Shown: positions 1,841 to 13,947, numbered from the stretch's first letter. The stretch is DNA of 64,000 bases from Pseudomonadota bacterium (GCA_049323435.1 JBMOMX010000035.1:10357-74356), one strand, 5' to 3'. Numbers and translations: made by a program. Notes: generated by a model from the letters alone, not told the origin.

Positions 1841-3607
1841 TCACCGCTCCAGCACATACAGGCCCGGCGCATCGCCCAGAGGCGCATAACCCTTTTGCGG
1901 CGCGCCCATTTGCGGCGAACTTACTCTATACCCGGAATGCCGGATCAGCCAGTCCTGCCAGCATAGCCACCAGGAGCCTTCCTGGCGCGGTGTCGCCTGC
2001 TGCCAGCGATCCGGATTTACATAGTTTTCGTCATCTTTTTGCGTCGATATCTGATAATGCTGCCCTGGCTGGCCCGGCGGGTTGACGATGCCCGCATTAT
2101 GGCCGCCATTCGACAGCACAAAGGTTACATCAGAACCAGTGAGCATCTGGATTTTGTAAACAGAACGCCAGGGCGCAACCTGATCCCCGATCGTACTCAC
2201 CGCGAAGATCGGAACCCGTATATCGCGCAGCGATACGGGCCGTCCGTCACACTCATAACGGCCCTCAACCAGATCATTGTCAAGAAACAGATGCCGCAGA
2301 TAGCCCGAATGCATATGAAAAGGCAGGCGCGTTGCATCGGCATTCCAGGCCATAAGATCGTTCATCGGCCGCCGCTGGCCCATCAGATAGGTTTTCACCA
2401 GCGCGGACCAGATCAGATCGTTCGAGCGCAAAAGCTGAAACGCGCCCGCCATCTGGCGCGTGTCGAGATACCCCTGTTCGGCCATCATATCCTCCAGAAA
2501 GCTGACCTGCGCATCGTCAATGAACAGCATCAGCTCTCCGGCCTCGGTGAAATCCGTCTGTGCGGCGAACAGCGTCAGGCTCTGAAGGCGGTCATCCGCA
2601 TCCCTGGCCATGGCGGCGGCGGTAATGGCGAGCAGCGTGCCGCCAATGCAATATCCGGCGGCGTGTATCTTCTGGCCGGGAACGATAGCCGAGATGGCGT
2701 CCAGCGCGGCCATGACGCCAAGCCTGCGGTAATCAACCATGCCCAGATCGCGGTCAGCGCCGGTGGGGTTCTTCCAGGAAATCATAAAAACCGTATGGCC
2801 TTTTTCCGTCAGATATTTTACCAGCGAATTTTCCGGAGAAAGATCGAGGATATAATATTTCATGATCCAGGCGGGGGTGATGAGAATCGGCTCCGCATGC
2901 ACGGTGTCCGCCGCCGGGGCATATTGAATCAGTTCGATCAGCCGGTTGCGGAGCACCACCTTGCCGGGCGTGACCGCCACATTGCGGCCAACCTGAAAGG
3001 CTTCCGCGCCAGCCGGCGGTGCGCCATTCACGGCCCGGCGCCAGTCTTCCCACAAATTGCGTGCGCCAATGACAAAATTCATTCCGCCCTGCCGGATGGT
3101 TTCCTCCAGTATTTCCGGATTTGTCAGCGGGAAATTCATTGGGGAAAGCATGTCAAGCAACTGACGCGCGGTAAAGGCGGTCACATCTTCATGGTGCCGG
3201 GAAACCCCGTCAACCCCTATGGTGGCGTTGTGCCACCATTGCTGCGTCAGCAGAAACCCCTGAGATATGGCGGCGAAGGGCTGTTTGCGCCACGCCTCGC
3301 CGGTGAAGCGGTTGTCAAATGGCAGCGGTTCAATGCATGGTGCGCAGGCAGGATCCGAACTGGCGCGCAGGCAATAGTCGGCGAAGCGCATCGATTTGCG
3401 CAAGGCCTTTATGGCAAGCAGGGCCTGCTTGTCAGGCGATAACAGCAGATGCTGCGCCCAGTCCGTATAGGCCTGCGCCAATGCGGCGGGCGAAATCCCG
3501 GCCGTAAATAACGCCGTGGCGGCGTGCAGCGGACGGTCGAAGGAAAAGGGCAGCCGCTCCGGCGGCTCTTTCCCCAACTGGTTTAATGACGGTGCTCGTT
3601 TTGCCAT
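1841..3607 (-). CDS. phaC: Class I poly(3-hydroxyalkanoate) synthase
   Basis: 588 aa, a typical class I length. Lipase-box GYCIGG is present and the alpha/beta-hydrolase core is conserved. It ends only 37 nt from the start of the acyl-CoA synthetase gene. Confidence 0.93.
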   Translation of the reverse strand: MAKRAPSLNQLGKEPPERLPFSFDRPLHAATALFTAGISPAALAQAYTDWAQHLLLSPDKQALLAIKALRKSMRFADYCLRASSDPACAPCIEPLPFDNRFTGEAWRKQPFAAISQGFLLTQQWWHNATIGVDGVSRHHEDVTAFTARQLLDMLSPMNFPLTNPEILEETIRQGGMNFVIGARNLWEDWRRAVNGAPPAGAEAFQVGRNVAVTPGKVVLRNRLIELIQYAPAADTVHAEPILITPAWIMKYYILDLSPENSLVKYLTEKGHTVFMISWKNPTGADRDLGMVDYRRLGVMAALDAISAIVPGQKIHAAGYCIGGTLLAITAAAMARDADDRLQSLTLFAAQTDFTEAGELMLFIDDAQVSFLEDMMAEQGYLDTRQMAGAFQLLRSNDLIWSALVKTYLMGQRRPMNDLMAWNADATRLPFHMHSGYLRHLFLDNDLVEGRYECDGRPVSLRDIRVPIFAVSTIGDQVAPWRSVYKIQMLTGSDVTFVLSNGGHNAGIVNPPGQPGQHYQISTQKDDENYVNPDRWQQATPRQEGSWWLCWQDWLIRHSGYRVSSPQMGAPQKGYAPLGDAPGLYVLER

Positions 3608-3694: not shown

Positions 3695-4285
3695 TCAGCG
3701 CTTTCTGCCACGCGCAGCAGATTTGGAAACAGTGGATGTGCGTTTACCAGCGCCCGTTTTAAGCAATGCCCGGACCTTTTTATTTTTCACCGGCGCGTCA
3801 TCATCATCATCATCATCATCCGTTTCCTCATCGGATGACGCCACATGTAATGTGAACTCTTTCGTTGCATCCGCTATGGCCGTCTCAGCCGCAGTATCGG
3901 CTCTCGCGGCCATATCGCGGACCATGGCCTGGCCACGCTCTTGCAGCCTTTGCGTCAGCTCCAGCCAGCTCCGGGTTTGCCCGGAGAAGCTCTCCATTAT
4001 GTCCGATACAATATTGGATTGGACGTCGATCAGATCCTGCGGCTTGCGCGCGCTGAACAGATCCTGAAAGTAACGCACGCTCCGTTCGCTGGCGGCTTTC
4101 AGCGCCTCGGTCTGGCGGGCCGATGCGTCCTGAACAAGCTTGCTCATATCCGCATTGTGCGCCTGAAATTTTCCGAAAAGGGATTCCATTTCGGATGTAT
4201 TGAAAATGCCGGACTGACCCCAGAAGGCACGCAAGCCGTTAAAGGGATTCATTGCCGCCGGGATGATTTCTGATGGTGCAGTCAT
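3695..4285 (-). CDS. Phasin (PHA granule-associated protein) with a poly-Asp and Lys-rich C-terminal tail
   Basis: The ORF runs to 4339, but AGGGAG sits 7 nt before the ATG at 4285 (MTAPSEIIPAAMNPF...). The body is a helical phasin-type sequence. It ends DDDDDDDD...KNKKVRALLKTGAGKRTSTVSKSAARGRKR. It lies next to phaC. Confidence 0.78.
   Translation of the reverse strand: MTAPSEIIPAAMNPFNGLRAFWGQSGIFNTSEMESLFGKFQAHNADMSKLVQDASARQTEALKAASERSVRYFQDLFSARKPQDLIDVQSNIVSDIMESFSGQTRSWLELTQRLQERGQAMVRDMAARADTAAETAIADATKEFTLHVASSDEETDDDDDDDDAPVKNKKVRALLKTGAGKRTSTVSKSAARGRKR
3798..3820. repeat. (TCA/ATC)7-8 trinucleotide microsatellite encoding the poly-Asp run of the phasin
   Basis: Plus strand reads gtcatcatcatcatcatcatcatcc. 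On the coding (minus) strand this is GAT repeats that give D8. Confidence 0.9.
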
Positions 4286-4425
4286 GATTCGTGCTCCCTG
4301 GTTATAGTTTACGCTTTGTAAGCTTAATGATCCGATCACGGAGCAATAATTTCATTGCCCCTGAATGATGCGAAAATCCTACCGCGCCATCGTGACGTAT
4401 TCGTGACAGGCGCGAATTTTTTCCG

Positions 4426-5547: not shown

Positions 5548-5640
5548 GTACCCCCTCCCAACCTCCCCCTTTCAGGGGGAGGAGTCATTCGCCGCAGCGT
5601 CCCCTCCCCTTGGAAAGGGGGGGGGACAGGGAGGGGATCA
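5548..5640. repeat. Compound GC-rich palindromic intergenic element, copy 1
   Basis: Hairpin cctccccctttcagggggagg at 5562-5582 has a 9-bp stem. A second G/C hairpin, cccctcccc...ggaggggatc, follows, and the two are nested inside outer inverted arms. The 21-nt core is identical to the one at 31241-31261. Translation gives the artefactual PFQGEG peptide. Confidence 0.8.
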
Positions 5641-5688: not shown

Positions 5689-6054
5689 CTAGGCGATAGC
5701 CCCAATCAATGCCAGCGCCGACCGCTCGATAATCTTCTCGAGAACGAAGCCCCCGACCAGGCGGGTCGCAATCCTGCCTGTCTCCGAGATCACGTCTGTC
5801 TGCGCCTGCGGCACACCGCCTTCTGGCGTAACGATATTGTGGCCACGCAAATGATCCAGCAGGCCATTATGGCAGATCAGGCGCATATCATAGGTAATCT
5901 TAATGCTGCCGGTAACCGTGCTGGCCTCAACCGTTTTAACACCCTGTAATGCGGAGAGGGTTTCGCACACACGGCCCGCCAACCACTCATCGCGCTTGAT
6001 GGCGTCGCTGCGTACCCTCAGCCGGCCCGGAACATGATGCAGATAATGGACCAC
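5689..6054 (-). CDS. Hypothetical protein with an HMA-like fold lacking CxxC (HxVPGRxRxR motif), paralogue A
   Basis: GTG start with AGGAG 7 nt upstream. It opens VHYLHHVPGRLRVRSD...GVKTVEASTVTGSIKITYD. The predicted b-a-b-b-a-b order matches heavy-metal-associated domains, but Arg residues replace the metal-binding cysteines. The same motif occurs in ORF 6906-7427 and at the N-terminus of the ATPase at 12148. Confidence 0.65.
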   Translation of the reverse strand: MVHYLHHVPGRLRVRSDAIKRDEWLAGRVCETLSALQGVKTVEASTVTGSIKITYDMRLICHNGLLDHLRGHNIVTPEGGVPQAQTDVISETGRIATRLVGGFVLEKIIERSALALIGAIA

Positions 6055-6265
6055 GGTTGCTCCTGTGGTGGTTTAAGTCACGATCCCTCTATGTCAAAAA
6101 TATTTCAGTTTCAGTGTTGGTTTTATGAAGAAATGGTGACGGGCAAAGTGCCGTGGATGCAGCGCAAGCAATAATCCGGCCTTCTCCGATCTGACTGAAT
6201 TGCCGGATTCAATCAGATCGGATATTCCGTATTAGCGGCATGCGCCTGTCTGTGCCGGGTCGTTG

Positions 6266-6913
6266 TTACAGCACGCCATCACGTGGAGGTTGCGGTTTAC
6301 CCTCTGGCAGCAATGCGCCTGCTACACGCTTGACACCGCCCAGGACATTGACCAGCACGCTTTCCACTGCTGACACTGCCGTGTTGCTGATGCTTCCCGC
6401 CGCCTCAAGCGCGCCGTTCGCTGCCGATACGGCCAGATTGCCAACATTGCCGCCAATTTCAGCCGCCGCCTCGACCACGCCCTCCACAACGCGCTTGGCG
6501 ACCGTGCCGACATCGCCGCCAACTTCAGCCGTGCCCTTGACCGCAGTTTTAGCGAGTTCCGCAGCCGCGCCAATAAGATCGCCGCCAACATCACTGACGC
6601 CAAGAATGACGCCCTTGGCGACGCTCTTGGTGGACAGGACCAGTCCGGTGCCGACCTGCTCCGTGGCCTGGATGGTTCCATGGATCACGTCGCGGGCAAC
6701 CCCGAGTGTTTCGGATGTCACCGATTTAGCGGCATGCACCGTGTTGGTGACGGTGCTGCGCGCCAGCGCCACGATCTCAGCCTCGATTTGGTCGATACCG
6801 CGCAGGCTGTTCACGATACCGTCTTTGATCTTGAGGCCAGCCTCGCTGGCCGGCTGCGCGGTTTCATGCATTATCTCGGCTGCTGTTTCTTTAACATGTG
6901 GGGTCTTAACCAT
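6266..6913 (-). CDS. Hypothetical Gly/Ala/Val-rich protein with degenerate ~21-aa tandem repeats
   Basis: The ORF runs to 6994, but the ATG at 6913 has AAGGAG 7 nt upstream (MVKTPHVKE...). The repeats are SDVGGDLIGAAAELAKTAVKGT / AEVGGDVGTVAKRVVEGVVEAA / AEIGGNVGNLAVSAANGALEAA / GSISNTAVSAVESVLVNVLG. I see no recognisable family. Confidence 0.6.
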   Translation of the reverse strand: MVKTPHVKETAAEIMHETAQPASEAGLKIKDGIVNSLRGIDQIEAEIVALARSTVTNTVHAAKSVTSETLGVARDVIHGTIQATEQVGTGLVLSTKSVAKGVILGVSDVGGDLIGAAAELAKTAVKGTAEVGGDVGTVAKRVVEGVVEAAAEIGGNVGNLAVSAANGALEAAGSISNTAVSAVESVLVNVLGGVKRVAGALLPEGKPQPPRDGVL

Positions 6914-7427
6914 CTCTGTCTCCTTGCTGCTGATGTTTACGTTGTGCTTTCCTCCCCTCGCTTCCGCTTCTTTTAGGCGTGGCAACCGGGGCAATAGCCT
7001 CGATTTCCAGCGCCGCTTGATCTGTGTCCGCGTTCAACAGGCTGAACGCGTACCAGAAAAATGTTGCAGCCGGCGCAAGGACATTACCCTGCGCCAGCTG
7101 ATAAAGGCCAAGCCCGATCAATAGCGGCGGCAACAGGCTTCGCAGGTCCAGCGCCGCTATGTCCGTAGACGGTGCAGGCGGTTCCCCGCCAAGCCGGAAC
7201 AGGCCGTGTTGTTCGGCATAGCGCGTTATCGCTTCCGGCTCGGTGGTGTGAATGACCAGCACGCTTCCCGTCATAGGGTTTATTTCCACCGTCTGCACCA
7301 TCTCGCATTTCAACAGCTCCGCGCCTATATGGGCATAAAATTCCCGGTCCCCGCGCCGCGCCGCAATCCGGTAGCGCACTCTTCCAGGCACCTCATGCGT
7401 CAGCGCGGCGGCTGCATCGCCATTCAC
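6906..7427 (-). CDS. Hypothetical protein with an HMA-like fold lacking CxxC, paralogue B
   Basis: GTG start whose codon overlaps the upstream stop as GTGA. It opens ...THEVPGRVRYRIAARRGDREFYAHIGAELLKCEMVQTVEINPMTGSVLVIHT. The C-terminal half is hydrophobic and Pro/Leu-rich. Its stop overlaps the next gene's start by 8 nt. Confidence 0.62.
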   Translation of the reverse strand: MNGDAAAALTHEVPGRVRYRIAARRGDREFYAHIGAELLKCEMVQTVEINPMTGSVLVIHTTEPEAITRYAEQHGLFRLGGEPPAPSTDIAALDLRSLLPPLLIGLGLYQLAQGNVLAPAATFFWYAFSLLNADTDQAALEIEAIAPVATPKRSGSEGRKAQRKHQQQGDRDG

Positions 7428-12100: not shown

Positions 12101-12148
12101 TACGACGCCTGCAAGCGATGCGGCCATTGACGCCACGCTCATGACCAT
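9113..12148 (-). CDS. Cation-transporting P-type ATPase, P2 (Ca2+-ATPase-like) type, with an extra ~128-aa HMA-like N-terminal domain
   Basis: 1011 aa. It carries DKTGTLT, PEGLP, KGSPDEVL, TGDGINDGPAL and GVTMGQSGTDVAREVADVIL, and a Cation_ATPase_N helix (LSSSEAALRLARYGPNALPQ) at about residues 130-165. Ahead of that helix lies ...PLHVAVSGRARLKVVGL...TGNLLVHFD. Confidence 0.9.
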   Translation of the reverse strand: MVMSVASMAASLAGVVPLHVAVSGRARLKVVGLDRNTGVAQMLEHRLPGRSGIRAAAANIRTGNLLVHFDPARSVDTIIQAVAAMLDSGAADIGEPKPAPNVVPFPAGRKREDSGMPDAVPGDAPPHTLSREQVLQRLETQPEQGLSSSEAALRLARYGPNALPQMPRRSALEILLGQVNSLPSLLLLGSAALSVATGGLADAVVILAVVALNSAIGYRSESEAEHTIEALGRLVPAAPLVLRDGGVCEVASCDIVPGDMLKLVPGTLIACDARVIEAKDLTIDESALTGESMPSVKSATAIASAGTALGDRANMVFKGTAVTGGSGLAAATATAERTELGHIQSLVGDARPPETPMQHQLDIMGKQLVWLSLGACGLVFSLGLLRGFGMLQMLRSSVSLAVAAVPEGLPTVATVTLALGIRTMRTHNVLIRRLDAVETLGAVSTVCLDKTGTLTLNRMSAVAVANAREIFEIADGQIQRNHSGASASANDELRRLLETCVLCSEVEIAEDEDVSLKGSPTETALIELAMSAGIDVRQLRAQRPMLNMDRRTEQHRFMMTSHAGEDGCPFTAVKGSPDEVLQLCTAFFDGGAERPLDEEDVLRIQALNQAMAGRGLRVLGFATRQGDAQDPGAFSWLGLAGLADPTRPGMAALMRDFHDAGLRTIIITGDQGATAFAIARELDLSQGQPVEILEGVDLDRLDPGLLAGLAQRTHVFARVSPANKLQIVQALQRNGNIVAMTGDGINDGPALRAADIGVTMGQSGTDVAREVADVILEDDRLQSMLVALGQGRTIYANIRKAIHYLLATNSSEIFVMLGAVGLGLGQPLTPVQLLWINLVSDIFPALALGLEPPEPDVLKDPPRDPREPLITAEEFRRIGIEGAVLSAGGLAAYLYGAARYGAGPAAGGVAFITLAAGQLLHALSARSPRHTIFERNALPPNPRLNQAVWGLLGLQGLAALFPVTRRLLGLDALGLADYAVAGAAAAGSLLVNETIKGARLRAQAANPDGGA

Positions 12149-12636
12149 CCACCCCAGTCTGCCTTAGCGCGCAGGAAAAGAGGTAAAACCAGGCCGGTAC
12201 AGTAAGGCAGCTGCTCTATCACCGGTAAATCCTGAATTGCACAATATTGCGCTCCACATTTCCCGCGTCCGGCGGGCGGCGAGAATGGCCGCGGGACCAA
12301 ATCGCTCGAACGGGTATTCTCGCTCCCCAGCCAGAATGGTGCGGAAGCTGCCGCAGTTGACTTGATCGAGATCAAATTTGCGATGACATGTTGATTAAGT
12401 TTTTATTACAGCCTGGATCAGCATCACTTTGCCGCGCAGACGGCGCAAAGAAATGGTTCTGGCTTAGGTTTGGAGAATGGCGTCTGCGGGGAGGAGAGAT
12501 GGCTGCTATCTATCGCGGCCTCAAAATAAATATTTCAGGAAAAAACACGCTAAAAATAACGCTGCGAGATGCCAGCCCCGGCGCCGTTTTTCCCCGGTTT
12601 CATCCCATGCGCTGTAACGTCTGGCTGGCGGATTGC

Positions 12637-13947
12637 CTATTCCTTGCTGATCAGAACCGTTTCGACATGATGGTCGCGCATGCCTTCGACAATGAAGCGG
12701 TAGGCGCCATCGGTGATCATGTCCCCTTCCACCGGAATACGTTCCAGCCGGTGCATGAACAGGCCGGACAATGTATTCACATTGACCGGCTCGCCGGGAA
12801 TGTAACCGGTTTCACGCTCGACATCGGCCAGTGACGCCAGGCCATGCGCCTTCCATCCGGCGTCTGTTTCGGTGATCGGAAATTCCGAAATATTTTCGTC
12901 CGTTTCATCGGCGATTTCGCCGACAATTTCTTCCAGCAGATCTTCAATCGTCACCAGGCCGGCAAAAGTGCCATATTCATCCAGAATGCAGGCCATATGC
13001 GCCTTTTTAACCCGCATCATTTCAAACAAGGTGGAAACCTTGAGCGATTCCGTAACCACCAGCGGCTCACGGCAATGGATGCGCAAATCTTTCCAGGGCT
13101 CGGGCCCGCCCGAAAGCAGGGTGTCCACAATATCCTTCATCAGAATCATGCCGATAAGACTGTCGCCGCTGCCATCGACAAGCGGAAAACGCGAATGGCG
13201 CGTGTCTTTCATAATGGCCAGGTTGGACTCCGGCGGCTGATCCAGCCGCAGCAGATCACACTTCATCCGCGGGATCATGACCTGGCCCACTGTGCGTTCG
13301 TTGAACCGGAACAGGTTCTGGATCATCTCCGCGGTGTCAAGGTGCAATTCGCCATGCTCGGCCGATGTCGTCACCAGGCCGCGAAATTCCGTATTGGTCA
13401 GCACATCCATATGGCTGGCCTCCTCGACGCCGAACAGGCCAAGCATGCCCCGTGACGCCCGGTTAAGCCCCCAATGCAAGGGATAGGACAGCAGATAAAA
13501 AATCCGCAATGGAATGGCGCAGAACAATGAAAGCGCCTCGGGCTTGCGGATGGCGAAGGTTTTCGGCACCTGTTCTCCCACGACGATATGCAGCGACGAA
13601 AAGACAGTGAAGCCGATCAGAAACGAAATCGTATGCAATGCCGGCTGGCTCAGTTCGAACGGCGCCAGCAGCGGCTCGATCAGCGCCGCCACCGCTGGTT
13701 CGCCCACCCAGCCCAAACCAAGCGAAGCCATGGTGATGCCAAGCTGACAGGCCGCCAGATAGGCTTCGAGCTCCTCCTGTATTTTAAGGGTCAGTTTAGC
13801 CGAAAAACTGCCCGTGCTGGCCATGCTTTCAATACGAAATCCCCTCGCTTTCACCAGTGCGAATTCCGCCGCCACAAAAAATGCATTGGCGGCCAGCAGC
13901 ACCAGTACGGCGATCAGACTTACCGAAATTTCCTCGCTCGTCAGCAT
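12637..13947 (-). CDS. HlyC/CorC (CNNM) family transporter: DUF21, CBS pair and CorC_HlyC domains
   Basis: 436 aa. It has the N-terminal four-TM DUF21 region, CBS domains and the C-terminal CorC domain. Confidence 0.9.
   Translation of the reverse strand: MLTSEEISVSLIAVLVLLAANAFFVAAEFALVKARGFRIESMASTGSFSAKLTLKIQEELEAYLAACQLGITMASLGLGWVGEPAVAALIEPLLAPFELSQPALHTISFLIGFTVFSSLHIVVGEQVPKTFAIRKPEALSLFCAIPLRIFYLLSYPLHWGLNRASRGMLGLFGVEEASHMDVLTNTEFRGLVTTSAEHGELHLDTAEMIQNLFRFNERTVGQVMIPRMKCDLLRLDQPPESNLAIMKDTRHSRFPLVDGSGDSLIGMILMKDIVDTLLSGGPEPWKDLRIHCREPLVVTESLKVSTLFEMMRVKKAHMACILDEYGTFAGLVTIEDLLEEIVGEIADETDENISEFPITETDAGWKAHGLASLADVERETGYIPGEPVNVNTLSGLFMHRLERIPVEGDMITDGAYRFIVEGMRDHHVETVLISKE

Follow-up and report, generated by a model that had tools for sequence, protein, structure and literature searches.

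Two small open reading frames (ORFs) in a 64-kb stretch of DNA from a Pseudomonadota bacterium (GCA_049323435.1, JBMOMX010000035.1:10357-74356; here called the window) encode proteins that contain the same domain as the N-terminus of a P-type ATPase encoded in the same gene cluster. The two reading frames are here named ORF A and ORF B, the genes of the cluster are all located on the minus strand between 1.8 and 12.2 kb of the window, and the shared domain is the already known CoBaHMA domain (Pfam HMA_2, PF19991). By analogy with ferrosomes, we consider it somewhat probable that the cluster encodes a membrane system resembling ferrosomes but handling Ca2+ or another divalent cation, in which CoBaHMA would serve as a common membrane-surface or assembly module rather than as a chaperone.

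Three copies of the CoBaHMA domain

ORF A carries HHVPGRLRVR...GVKTVEASTVTGSIKITYD and ORF B carries HEVPGRVRYR...EMVQTVEINPMTGSVLVIHT, and the HxVPGRxRxR motifs quoted in the initial annotation, which was made from the sequence alone, were located in these ORFs. The same annotation described the two proteins as stand-alone paralogs of the N-terminal domain of the ATPase, and the sequence comparisons and profile searches, together with the predicted structures of the two ORFs, agree with this. In the BLASTP comparisons, ORF A and ORF B aligned over 85 amino acids (E=9e-7, 26% identity), and ORF A aligned with the N-terminus of the pump over 49 amino acids (E=1e-3). The match of ORF B to the pump was confined to the vicinity of the PGR stretch (E=0.02). 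Both ORFs score above the gathering score of 30 bits for Pfam HMA_2, at 38.1 bits for ORF A and 46.2 bits for ORF B, and the model matches 61/61 aligned members of the ORF A family and 64/64 relatives of ORF B. HMA_2 was the sole family matched when the two ORFs and the neighboring protein X215 were searched against Pfam and NCBIfam; it was matched by the ORFs only, and X215 was placed in no family by these databases or by a comparison with PDB sequences. A six-frame search of the window with profiles of the cluster homologs retrieved exactly three copies of the domain (E=3e-42, 8e-20 and 3e-14), and the N-terminal domain of the pump was matched at E~1e-14 by a CoBaHMA profile derived from the cluster.

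The structures predicted for ORF A and ORF B by AlphaFold2 have a common order of elements, β0-β1-α1-β2-β3-α2. The block-mean predicted local distance difference test (pLDDT) values in the two proteins are 93-98 for the domain core and 82-85 for the first ten residues. In ORF A, the elements are β0 (residues 4-8), β1 (11-15), α1 (23-34), β2 (39-45), β3 (50-55) and α2 (62-71), with block means of 93-97 for residues 11-70 and 82 for residues 1-10, and in ORF B the domain has pLDDT values of 95-98. The length of the alignment and the common topology show that the similarity is not limited to a short Arg-rich stretch embedded in different secondary structures. In a Foldseek search, the top matches of ORF A were the metal-binding domains of CopZ, MerP, ATP7B and ZiaA (probability ~1.0, target template modeling score 0.6-0.78, identity 11-20%). 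The matches of ORF B were weaker but pointed in the same direction, to HMA domains. The models support that the fold of both proteins belongs to the HMA superfamily.

The CoBaHMA domain was first defined on calcyanins, as an HMA core with an extra strand β0 that contains a strictly conserved His, with basic residues and without metal-binding cysteines (PMC8890360; 10.1101/2024.07.07.602159). Both ORFs contain the β0 strand with the conserved His and a basic β1 strand, and both lack CxxC. NCBI annotates ORF A as an "HMA2 domain-containing protein". The domain resembles the CoBaHMA family in the HMA/ferredoxin-like core, the β0 His, the basic β1 and the lack of CxxC, as well as in the occurrence of the domain either as a monodomain protein or fused to a membrane protein. 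There is no difference from the family at the domain level, while the context, with a P2A pump, DUF5132, X215 and a MetK-like protein, may be new. The classical HMA model (PF00403) reached 18.4 and 16.1 bits, which is below its cut-off of 24.8 bits. The CxxC metal site of the β1-α1 loop is missing in ORF A and ORF B, in agreement with the initial annotation, which excluded a soft-metal ligand. Its statement that the domain contains no cysteines was too strong, since C30 and C61 are present in ORF A and C41 in ORF B, although none of these is conserved across the wider families.

The invariant residues of the ORF A family are H6, G10, R11, R13, G38, T48, G49 and S50. The ORF B family conserves PGRxRxR, RRGD and LAPAxTLFWYA, and keeps H11 in at least 90% of its members. 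Beyond the domain, ORF A continues with a disordered linker and ends with a conserved C-terminal helix (EKxxERSALALIGAI). The hydrophobic Pro/Leu-rich C-terminal extension that had been noticed in ORF B is real and is modeled as a hairpin of two helices (residues 95-113 and 119-145, pLDDT 77-92), which holds the family-conserved LAPAxTLFWYA and is followed by a disordered basic tail. A relationship of this hairpin to DUF454 was rejected, as 0/64 relatives of ORF B match that Pfam family. The ratios of nonsynonymous to synonymous substitution rates (dN/dS), estimated against two orthologous loci, are 0.15-0.25 for ORF A, ORF B, X215 and the DUF5132 protein (0.20-0.23 for ORF A, 0.20-0.25 for ORF A and ORF B together, and 0.16-0.23 for DUF5132), indicating that all four are real genes and that ORF A and ORF B are under purifying selection.

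The pump and the cassette around it

The pump consists of a CoBaHMA-like domain (residues ~12-82), a Pro-rich linker of ~40 residues and a SERCA/SPCA-like core (residues 132-997). It carries the Pfam domains Cation_ATPase_N and Cation_ATPase_C, and among the NCBIfam models it fits the IIA Ca2+ types (PMR1-type and SERCA-type) best, although below the equivalog cut-offs (576.6 vs 798.3). Of the solved structures, it is most similar to SPCA1 (7e-137), LMCA1 of Listeria (2e-134) and SERCA (~1e-108), and its first ~125 residues have no match among them. The DKTGTLT motif is present, and PEGLP in transmembrane helix 4 (TM4), NSSE in TM5 and NLVSD in TM6 are placed at the positions of the Ca2+ ligands in SERCA. 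In 42/42 cluster-associated pumps, both PEGLP and LWINLx(T/S)D are retained, with N-x-(S/T)-E variants in TM5. The TM8 glutamate of SERCA site I is presumably a glutamine in the pump, as judged by eye from the sequence.

Judged by these sequence features, the pump is a P2A-type ATPase (SPCA/LMCA1/SERCA-like) in which the majority of the Ca-site residues of SERCA are preserved, and because the equivalog cut-offs were not reached, it is assigned to P2A but to no exact subfamily or ion. The ion inferred from the sequence is Ca2+ (or Mn2+). A P1B or CopA-type pump is ruled out by PEGLP in place of CPx, by the Cation_ATPase_N and Cation_ATPase_C domains, and by the P1B models (TIGR01525, TIGR01511 and CopA), the scores of which are far below their cut-offs. 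The initial annotation compared the locus to CopZ-like chaperones beside a CopA-type pump; the HMA-like fold and the arrangement of the genes are retained from this comparison, while the pump class and the chaperone function are not.

To describe the cassette, one genome per species was scanned, which yielded 156 loci with a relative of ORF A. The best 80 of the 156 loci were kept, and the counts of pumps and partners refer to the region within 10 kb of the ORF A relative in these 80. They span Nitrosospira/Nitrosovibrio, Thiobacillaceae, Acidiferrobacteraceae, Rhodospirillales, Chromatiaceae and Competibacteraceae, and also Nitrospirota, Acidobacteriota, Desulfobacterales, Methylomirabilis and Magnetococcales. 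A PEGL-type (P2) pump is located near the ORF A relative in 37/80 loci, and these contain DUF5132 (34/37), an ORF B-type protein (33/37), the MetK-like protein (30/37) and X215 (26/37). The order of the core cassette is DUF5132, ORF B, X215, ORF A, usually beside a CoBaHMA-bearing pump and the MetK-like gene.

The order of nine genes from the pump to PhaC is kept in three lineages, including one from a groundwater metagenome and one from a Joint Genome Institute (JGI) metagenome. The groundwater and JGI relatives have an ORF B identity of 68-70% and a nucleotide identity of 80-83%, and their upstream flanks differ. Synteny with the close relatives begins at the start of the pump (~12125-12154), runs past PhaC and extends into a gene for an ADP-forming acetyl-CoA synthetase/acetyltransferase that is cut by the start of the window. 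The core is also shared by metagenome-assembled genomes (MAGs) of Magnetospirillum, a gammaproteobacterium and Nitrococcus, the ORF A relatives of which show 40-48% identity. The Magnetospirillum MAG has TerC and Usp genes placed between X215 and ORF A. The gammaproteobacterial MAG contains a gene of the Na/Ca exchanger family, the pump and the MetK-like gene, with PhoU/pst genes adjoining, and in the Nitrococcus MAG the cassette is adjoined by ppk and ppx. A reduced cassette, without the MetK-like gene and X215, is found in the cultured Paraburkholderia diazotrophica (locus L095) and Trinickia symbiotica (L096). It consists of a longer HMA_2 protein, DUF5132, ORF B-type and ORF A-type proteins, a convergent P2 pump and DUF445, which recurs in seven other loci.

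After the six core families, the neighbors encountered most often are an SDR protein, in 8/53 loci, followed by DUF445 in 7, a protein with a Zn ribbon in 6, and ABC ATPases of mixed kinds; a neighbor cluster labeled "PstB" proved to be heterogeneous rather than a single family. Genes related to phosphate (pstCAB/phoU, phnC-like, ppk, ppx, phoD) occur within 10 kb in ~7/53 loci, namely L012/L016 (the gammaproteobacterial MAG), L014 (the Nitrococcus MAG), L026, L055, L065, L010 and L019. By a crude estimate this is above a rough chance expectation. It is no more than suggestive, and brings to mind the mineral phosphate inside ferrosomes.

The DUF5132 protein contains an N-terminal Gly-rich (GxxxG) transmembrane helix, carried in GLAVGLGVAVLG, followed by a long amphipathic helix, and is thus a GxxxG hydrophobic protein. 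X215 is built of eight 22-residue repeats rich in Ala, Gly and Val, without aromatic residues and without Cys. Its autocorrelation has a z-score of 8.9 at lag 22, and the hydrophobicity power is 264 at a period of 3.67 (11/3) vs 9.6 at 3.6. Relatives of X215 were found in 474 representative clusters at E<=1e-3. A period of 11/3 is a hallmark of helices at lipid surfaces, such as those of synuclein, perilipin and apolipoproteins. This period fits a coat on a curved membrane, and X215 may be such a lipid-surface coat protein. The X215 profile also matches the alpha-synuclein repeats, weakly (E~3e-3); this match and those to designed helical bundles, Apolipoprotein, Senescence and CsmC are weak and probably compositional.

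The MetK-like protein scores 357.9 bits with TIGR01034, above the metK equivalog cut-off of 309, and keeps GHPDK and GxTGRKxxxDTYG. The GAGDQG motif is replaced in all readable copies (25/44), by AADNQV in the window and by xxxN(Q/P)xT or a variant of it in the others, and GGGAFSGKD is changed to S(G/E)xALSGKD in 44/44. The MgtE-family protein contains one detected CBS domain and the MgtE membrane domain, and its residues 54-335 align with the C-terminal ~280 of the 450 positions in the mgtE model. A protein of this family is placed between X215 and ORF A in loci of Nitrosospira, Nitrosovibrio, Thiobacillaceae and Acidiferrobacteraceae (L017, L020, L040, L041 and L071), so that the channel looks like an optional member of the cluster. 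The variable partners, MgtE, the Na/Ca exchanger family protein and TerC, are all divalent-cation transporters.

Table 1. Genes of the cluster and its flanks, in positions of the window.
Feature	Position	Strand	Basis or remark
PhaC	1841-3607	minus	
Phasin, run of eight Asp	3695-4339	minus	
Short MgtE-family channel, 336 aa	4426-5436	minus	Pfam MgtE + CBS
ORF A, 121 aa, CoBaHMA residues 1-~75	5689-6054	minus	Pfam HMA_2 38.1 bits
X215, 215 aa, 22-residue repeats	6266-6913	minus	Without Pfam family
ORF B, 173 aa, CoBaHMA residues ~6-80 + helical hairpin	6906-7427	minus	Pfam HMA_2 46.2 bits
DUF5132 protein, 122 aa	7424-7792	minus	Pfam DUF5132 42.5 bits
MetK-like methionine adenosyltransferase paralog, 398 aa	7917-9113	minus	TIGR01034 357.9 bits
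P2A-type P-type ATPase, 1009-1011 aa	9113-12148	minus	Pfam domains, NCBIfam, PDB matches
CNNM/CorC-type Mg2+/Co2+ efflux family gene	12637-13947	minus	Just upstream of the pump

The start of the MetK-like gene overlaps the stop codon of the pump, the GTG start of ORF B overlaps the stop of DUF5132 by 4 nt, and the end of ORF B overlaps the start of X215 by 8 nt, which indicates coupled translation of these three pairs. ORF A starts with GTG, and AGGAG is placed 6 nt upstream. The CNNM/CorC-type gene is not kept at the related loci and is therefore probably outside the cluster. An Rfam scan of the window at gathering scores identified no riboswitch or known RNA near the cluster, with two tRNAs elsewhere, and the sigma-70 promoters and intrinsic terminators predicted between 3500 and 12800 were not above shuffled controls.

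Two of the intergenic gaps contain repeats. The gap between X215 and ORF A holds a perfect 10-bp inverted repeat at 6185-6222, TCCGATCTGA...TCAGATCGGA, which extends to a 16-bp hairpin with a z-score for RNA folding of -4.8. Four loci with diverged flanks share an unchanged outer stem, and the differences at one inner pair are compensatory. This repeat may act as a hairpin in the RNA or as an operator, and no further copy of the full palindrome was found within the window. The gap between ORF A and mgtE (5552-5636) contains two adjoining hairpins rich in G/C homopolymers, of the type CCTCCCCC...GGGGGAGG, which look like repetitive extragenic palindromes; the pair is unique within the window.

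Relation to fez, ccyA and CopZ/CopA clusters

Lipid-bounded iron granules, the ferrosomes, require the fez genes (10.1101/2020.01.10.902569). Their pump, FezB, has the signatures D[Y/F]SCA and HNxxT, and an N-terminal R-rich motif, RxRxR, is found on FezB, on FezC, which consists of an HMA domain and two transmembrane helices, and on soluble Fez proteins such as FezD; the fez clusters also encode the GxxxG hydrophobic proteins FezA, FezE and FezG (10.1101/2020.01.10.902569). The interior of the ferrosome holds an Fe-phosphate mineral (PMC13307979). A part-set of the same kind is present in the window, where the pump contains GRARLK, ORF B contains PGRVRYR and the hairpin, ORF A contains PGRLRVR and DUF5132 contains GxxxG. 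The pump would thus correspond to the RxRxR pump, ORF B to the protein with the motif and two helices, ORF A to the soluble motif protein, and DUF5132 to the GxxxG protein next to the pump.

The two types of cluster are also linked by their gene content. In 17/80 loci, the P2-type pump is replaced by a pump of ~715 aa, which contains HNxxT in 17/17 and DYSCA in 9/17, and several of these pumps with FezB signatures start with HELPGRLRLR. Members of the ORF A family and DUF5132-like genes are located beside such pumps in Chromatiaceae, Competibacteraceae and Magnetococcales. The sequence GRxRxR followed by K/R is common to the N-termini of the ORF A-type, ORF B-type, P2-pump and FezB-type proteins. 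Moreover, in 15/17 loci the FezB-type pump is adjoined by a small protein that combines a GxxxG helix with an amphipathic one. In hhalign, DUF5132 matched the proteins directly upstream of the FezB-type pumps with 91.5% probability (E=8.5e-7); the Pfam DUF5132 model does not reach the one FezB-adjacent protein that was tested with it.

There are also several differences between the clusters. The pump in the window is a P2A pump with PEGLP and SERCA-type Ca ligands, rather than a P1B-6 pump. The MetK-like protein and X215 accompany the P2-type pump only, each being present in 0/17 of the Fez-type loci. No iron-homeostasis genes are located near the cluster in the window. Finally, many hosts of the cassette are aerobes, such as Nitrosospira and Paraburkholderia, while the hosts of fez clusters are mostly anaerobes.

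A further resemblance is to the vicinity of ccyA, the marker gene for intracellular amorphous calcium carbonates, in Microcystis, which includes two DUF5132 proteins, a CoBaHMA-hairpin protein, a CoBaHMA monodomain protein and an exchanger of Ca2+ for H+; co-expression with ccyA is known for several of them (10.1101/2024.07.07.602159). As set by the description of the genes, the order of DUF5132, CoBaHMA-hairpin, CoBaHMA and cation transporter is nearly the same as here. However, the window contains no recognizable calcyanin or (GlyZip)3 protein, the repeats in X215 are of 22 residues as compared to the ~50-residue GlyZip units of calcyanin, and the transporters are a P2A ATPase and MgtE instead of a Ca2+/H+ exchanger. 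In the literature searched, which did not cover Gaschignard et al. 2024, we found no description of the P2-type cluster or of a link between the R-rich motif and CoBaHMA.

With the CopZ/CopA system, the cluster shares a free HMA-fold protein beside a P-type pump that has the same fold at its N-terminus. It differs from this system in that a basic patch takes the place of CxxC, one of the copies is membrane-anchored, and the pump is P2A rather than P1B. Of the two systems, the ferrosome cluster is the closer analogy.

Interpretation of the cluster

All three copies of CoBaHMA hang by a disordered linker from a membrane element, namely the ten-TM pump, the hairpin of ORF B and the C-terminal helix of ORF A, the last of which is likely to be membrane-associated. 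According to the sequences and models, the R-x-R-x-R motif on β1 places three Arg on one face of the sheet, with the hydrophobic residues packing on the helices, which leaves a basic open face. The tethering by linkers and the basic face suggest a shared membrane-surface module. The basic patch, made up of the RxRxR motif on β1, the β0 His and the following K/R, would bind an anionic partner at the membrane surface, for which acidic lipid head groups, phosphate, polyphosphate or a stretch of acidic residues in a protein are candidates. Binding of this kind would gather or co-regulate the pump and the accessory proteins on one membrane patch or compartment. In these terms, the cluster would represent a fez architecture in which a P2A Ca2+-type pump replaces the P1B-6 FezB, and its most likely job would be the sequestration or handling of Ca2+, or perhaps of Mn2+ or Mg2+, in or at a dedicated membrane domain or organelle.

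A wider and more tentative proposal, to which we assign a clearly lower probability, is that the cassette marks a widespread but as yet undescribed sister of the ferrosome, a membrane-bounded store of Ca2+ (or Ca/Mg/Mn) as phosphate or carbonate. It would consist of the CoBaHMA-P2A pump, the MetK-like protein, DUF5132, the CoBaHMA-hairpin protein, the coat with 11-mer repeats, the CoBaHMA protein and a variable MgtE, CaCA or TerC transporter. The R-rich motif of the Fez proteins would then be the CoBaHMA domain of calcyanins, acting as one targeting or assembly module of several biomineral organelles, and the MetK-like protein might have a dedicated role, e.g., in the local supply of S-adenosylmethionine or of pyrophosphate and phosphate.

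Several points weigh against a ferrosome-like system. The N-terminal domain of the pump (residues 12-82) scores 24.2 bits with HMA_2 (E=3.7e-5), which is below the gathering score. The pump in the window contains neither D[Y/F]SCA nor HNxxT, so that strictly speaking the cluster does not count as a fez cluster. The likeness to ferrosomes was set by the description of the Fez proteins in D. magneticus, S. putrefaciens and R. palustris, and the link between DUF5132 and the neighbors of FezB is a remote homology that was obtained in the third profile iteration. The cluster was analyzed here at the level of its genes. While no description of CoBaHMA on a P2A Ca-type pump with this cassette was found in the literature searched, Gaschignard et al. 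2024 (Proteins) may already report P2-type architectures or a link to ferrosomes. Lastly, most of the data could be accounted for just as well by a simple pump that exports Ca2+ across the plasma membrane and has regulatory partners.

This last explanation, which we regard as possible but rather unlikely, takes the soluble ORF A and the anchored ORF B to regulate in trans a normal Ca2+ efflux pump of the plasma membrane. The CoBaHMA domain of the pump would be autoinhibitory or lipid-sensing, the free copies would tune the activity of the pump in competition or cooperation with that domain, and no compartment would be involved. Many P-type ATPases have a regulatory domain at the N-terminus, and the presence of the same domain on the pump and its neighbors is in line with such a system, as is the reduced cassette in Burkholderiaceae, which lacks X215 and the MetK-like protein. 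According to citing papers, a regulatory role that involves anionic lipids has been proposed for CoBaHMA. However, regulation of an efflux pump leaves X215, the GxxxG protein DUF5132, the MetK-like protein and the extra cation channels unexplained, and it does not account for the ORF A-type and DUF5132-like proteins beside FezB, the cluster of which builds an organelle (10.1101/2020.01.10.902569).

It is much less probable that ORF A and ORF B act in the manner of CopZ, as chaperones for a hard cation that is passed on to the N-terminal domain of the pump. The HMA-like fold, with metallochaperones and the metal-binding domains of pumps as the nearest solved structures, the strictly conserved β0 His, and the free domains beside a pump with the same domain, which mirror CopZ/CopA, are in line with such a function. 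However, there is neither a CxxC nor a conserved cluster of acidic or His residues at the β1-α1 loop, conservation is instead seen at Arg and Lys, the classical HMA model falls short of its cut-off, the pump is P2A, and ORF B is anchored in the membrane. Pumps of this class for Ca2+, Mg2+ or Mn2+ are not known to depend on chaperones. Judging from the sequences, a chaperone role is unlikely because the conserved His, Arg and Lys are placed on the face of the sheet and are not metal ligands, and because ORF B is anchored; a copper chaperone in particular was rejected, given that CxxC is missing, classical HMA is under threshold and the pump is P2A.

Also very improbable is a role of the proteins at the surface of polyhydroxybutyrate (PHB) granules, in which the cassette would work with the phasin and PhaC, for instance by coating PHB granules or making PHB/Ca/polyphosphate complexes: the genes for phasin and PhaC come directly after the cluster, both here and in its close relatives L007 and L010, even though the upstream flanks differ, X215 resembles a lipid-surface protein, and the poly-Asp tract of the phasin could meet the basic patch, but the adjacency is confined to these close relatives, a match to the phasin or PhaC of the window within 10 kb was found in 0/80 species loci, and L095 has a weak Phasin_2 match ~5 kb from the cassette.

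The membrane system of ferrosome type proposed above would add to a short list, as few lipid-bounded bacterial organelles have known genes, with magnetosomes and ferrosomes as the main examples. Few of the genes that underlie intracellular inclusions of Ca-carbonate or granules resembling acidocalcisomes have been identified. The domain itself is already known, and the part that may be new is the context of the cluster. The cassette joins the R-rich motif of ferrosomes, the CoBaHMA domain of calcyanins and the DUF5132 and CoBaHMA neighbors of ccyA, a link that was not found in the literature searched. It provides a candidate gene set for cation sequestration in many phyla, with Nitrosospira, Nitrosovibrio, Paraburkholderia and Trinickia among the cultured hosts, of which the strains with the reduced cassette, P. 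diazotrophica and T. symbiotica, may be the more workable. If the shared basic HMA-like domain is an address tag for compartments, it would provide a handle to find and engineer them.

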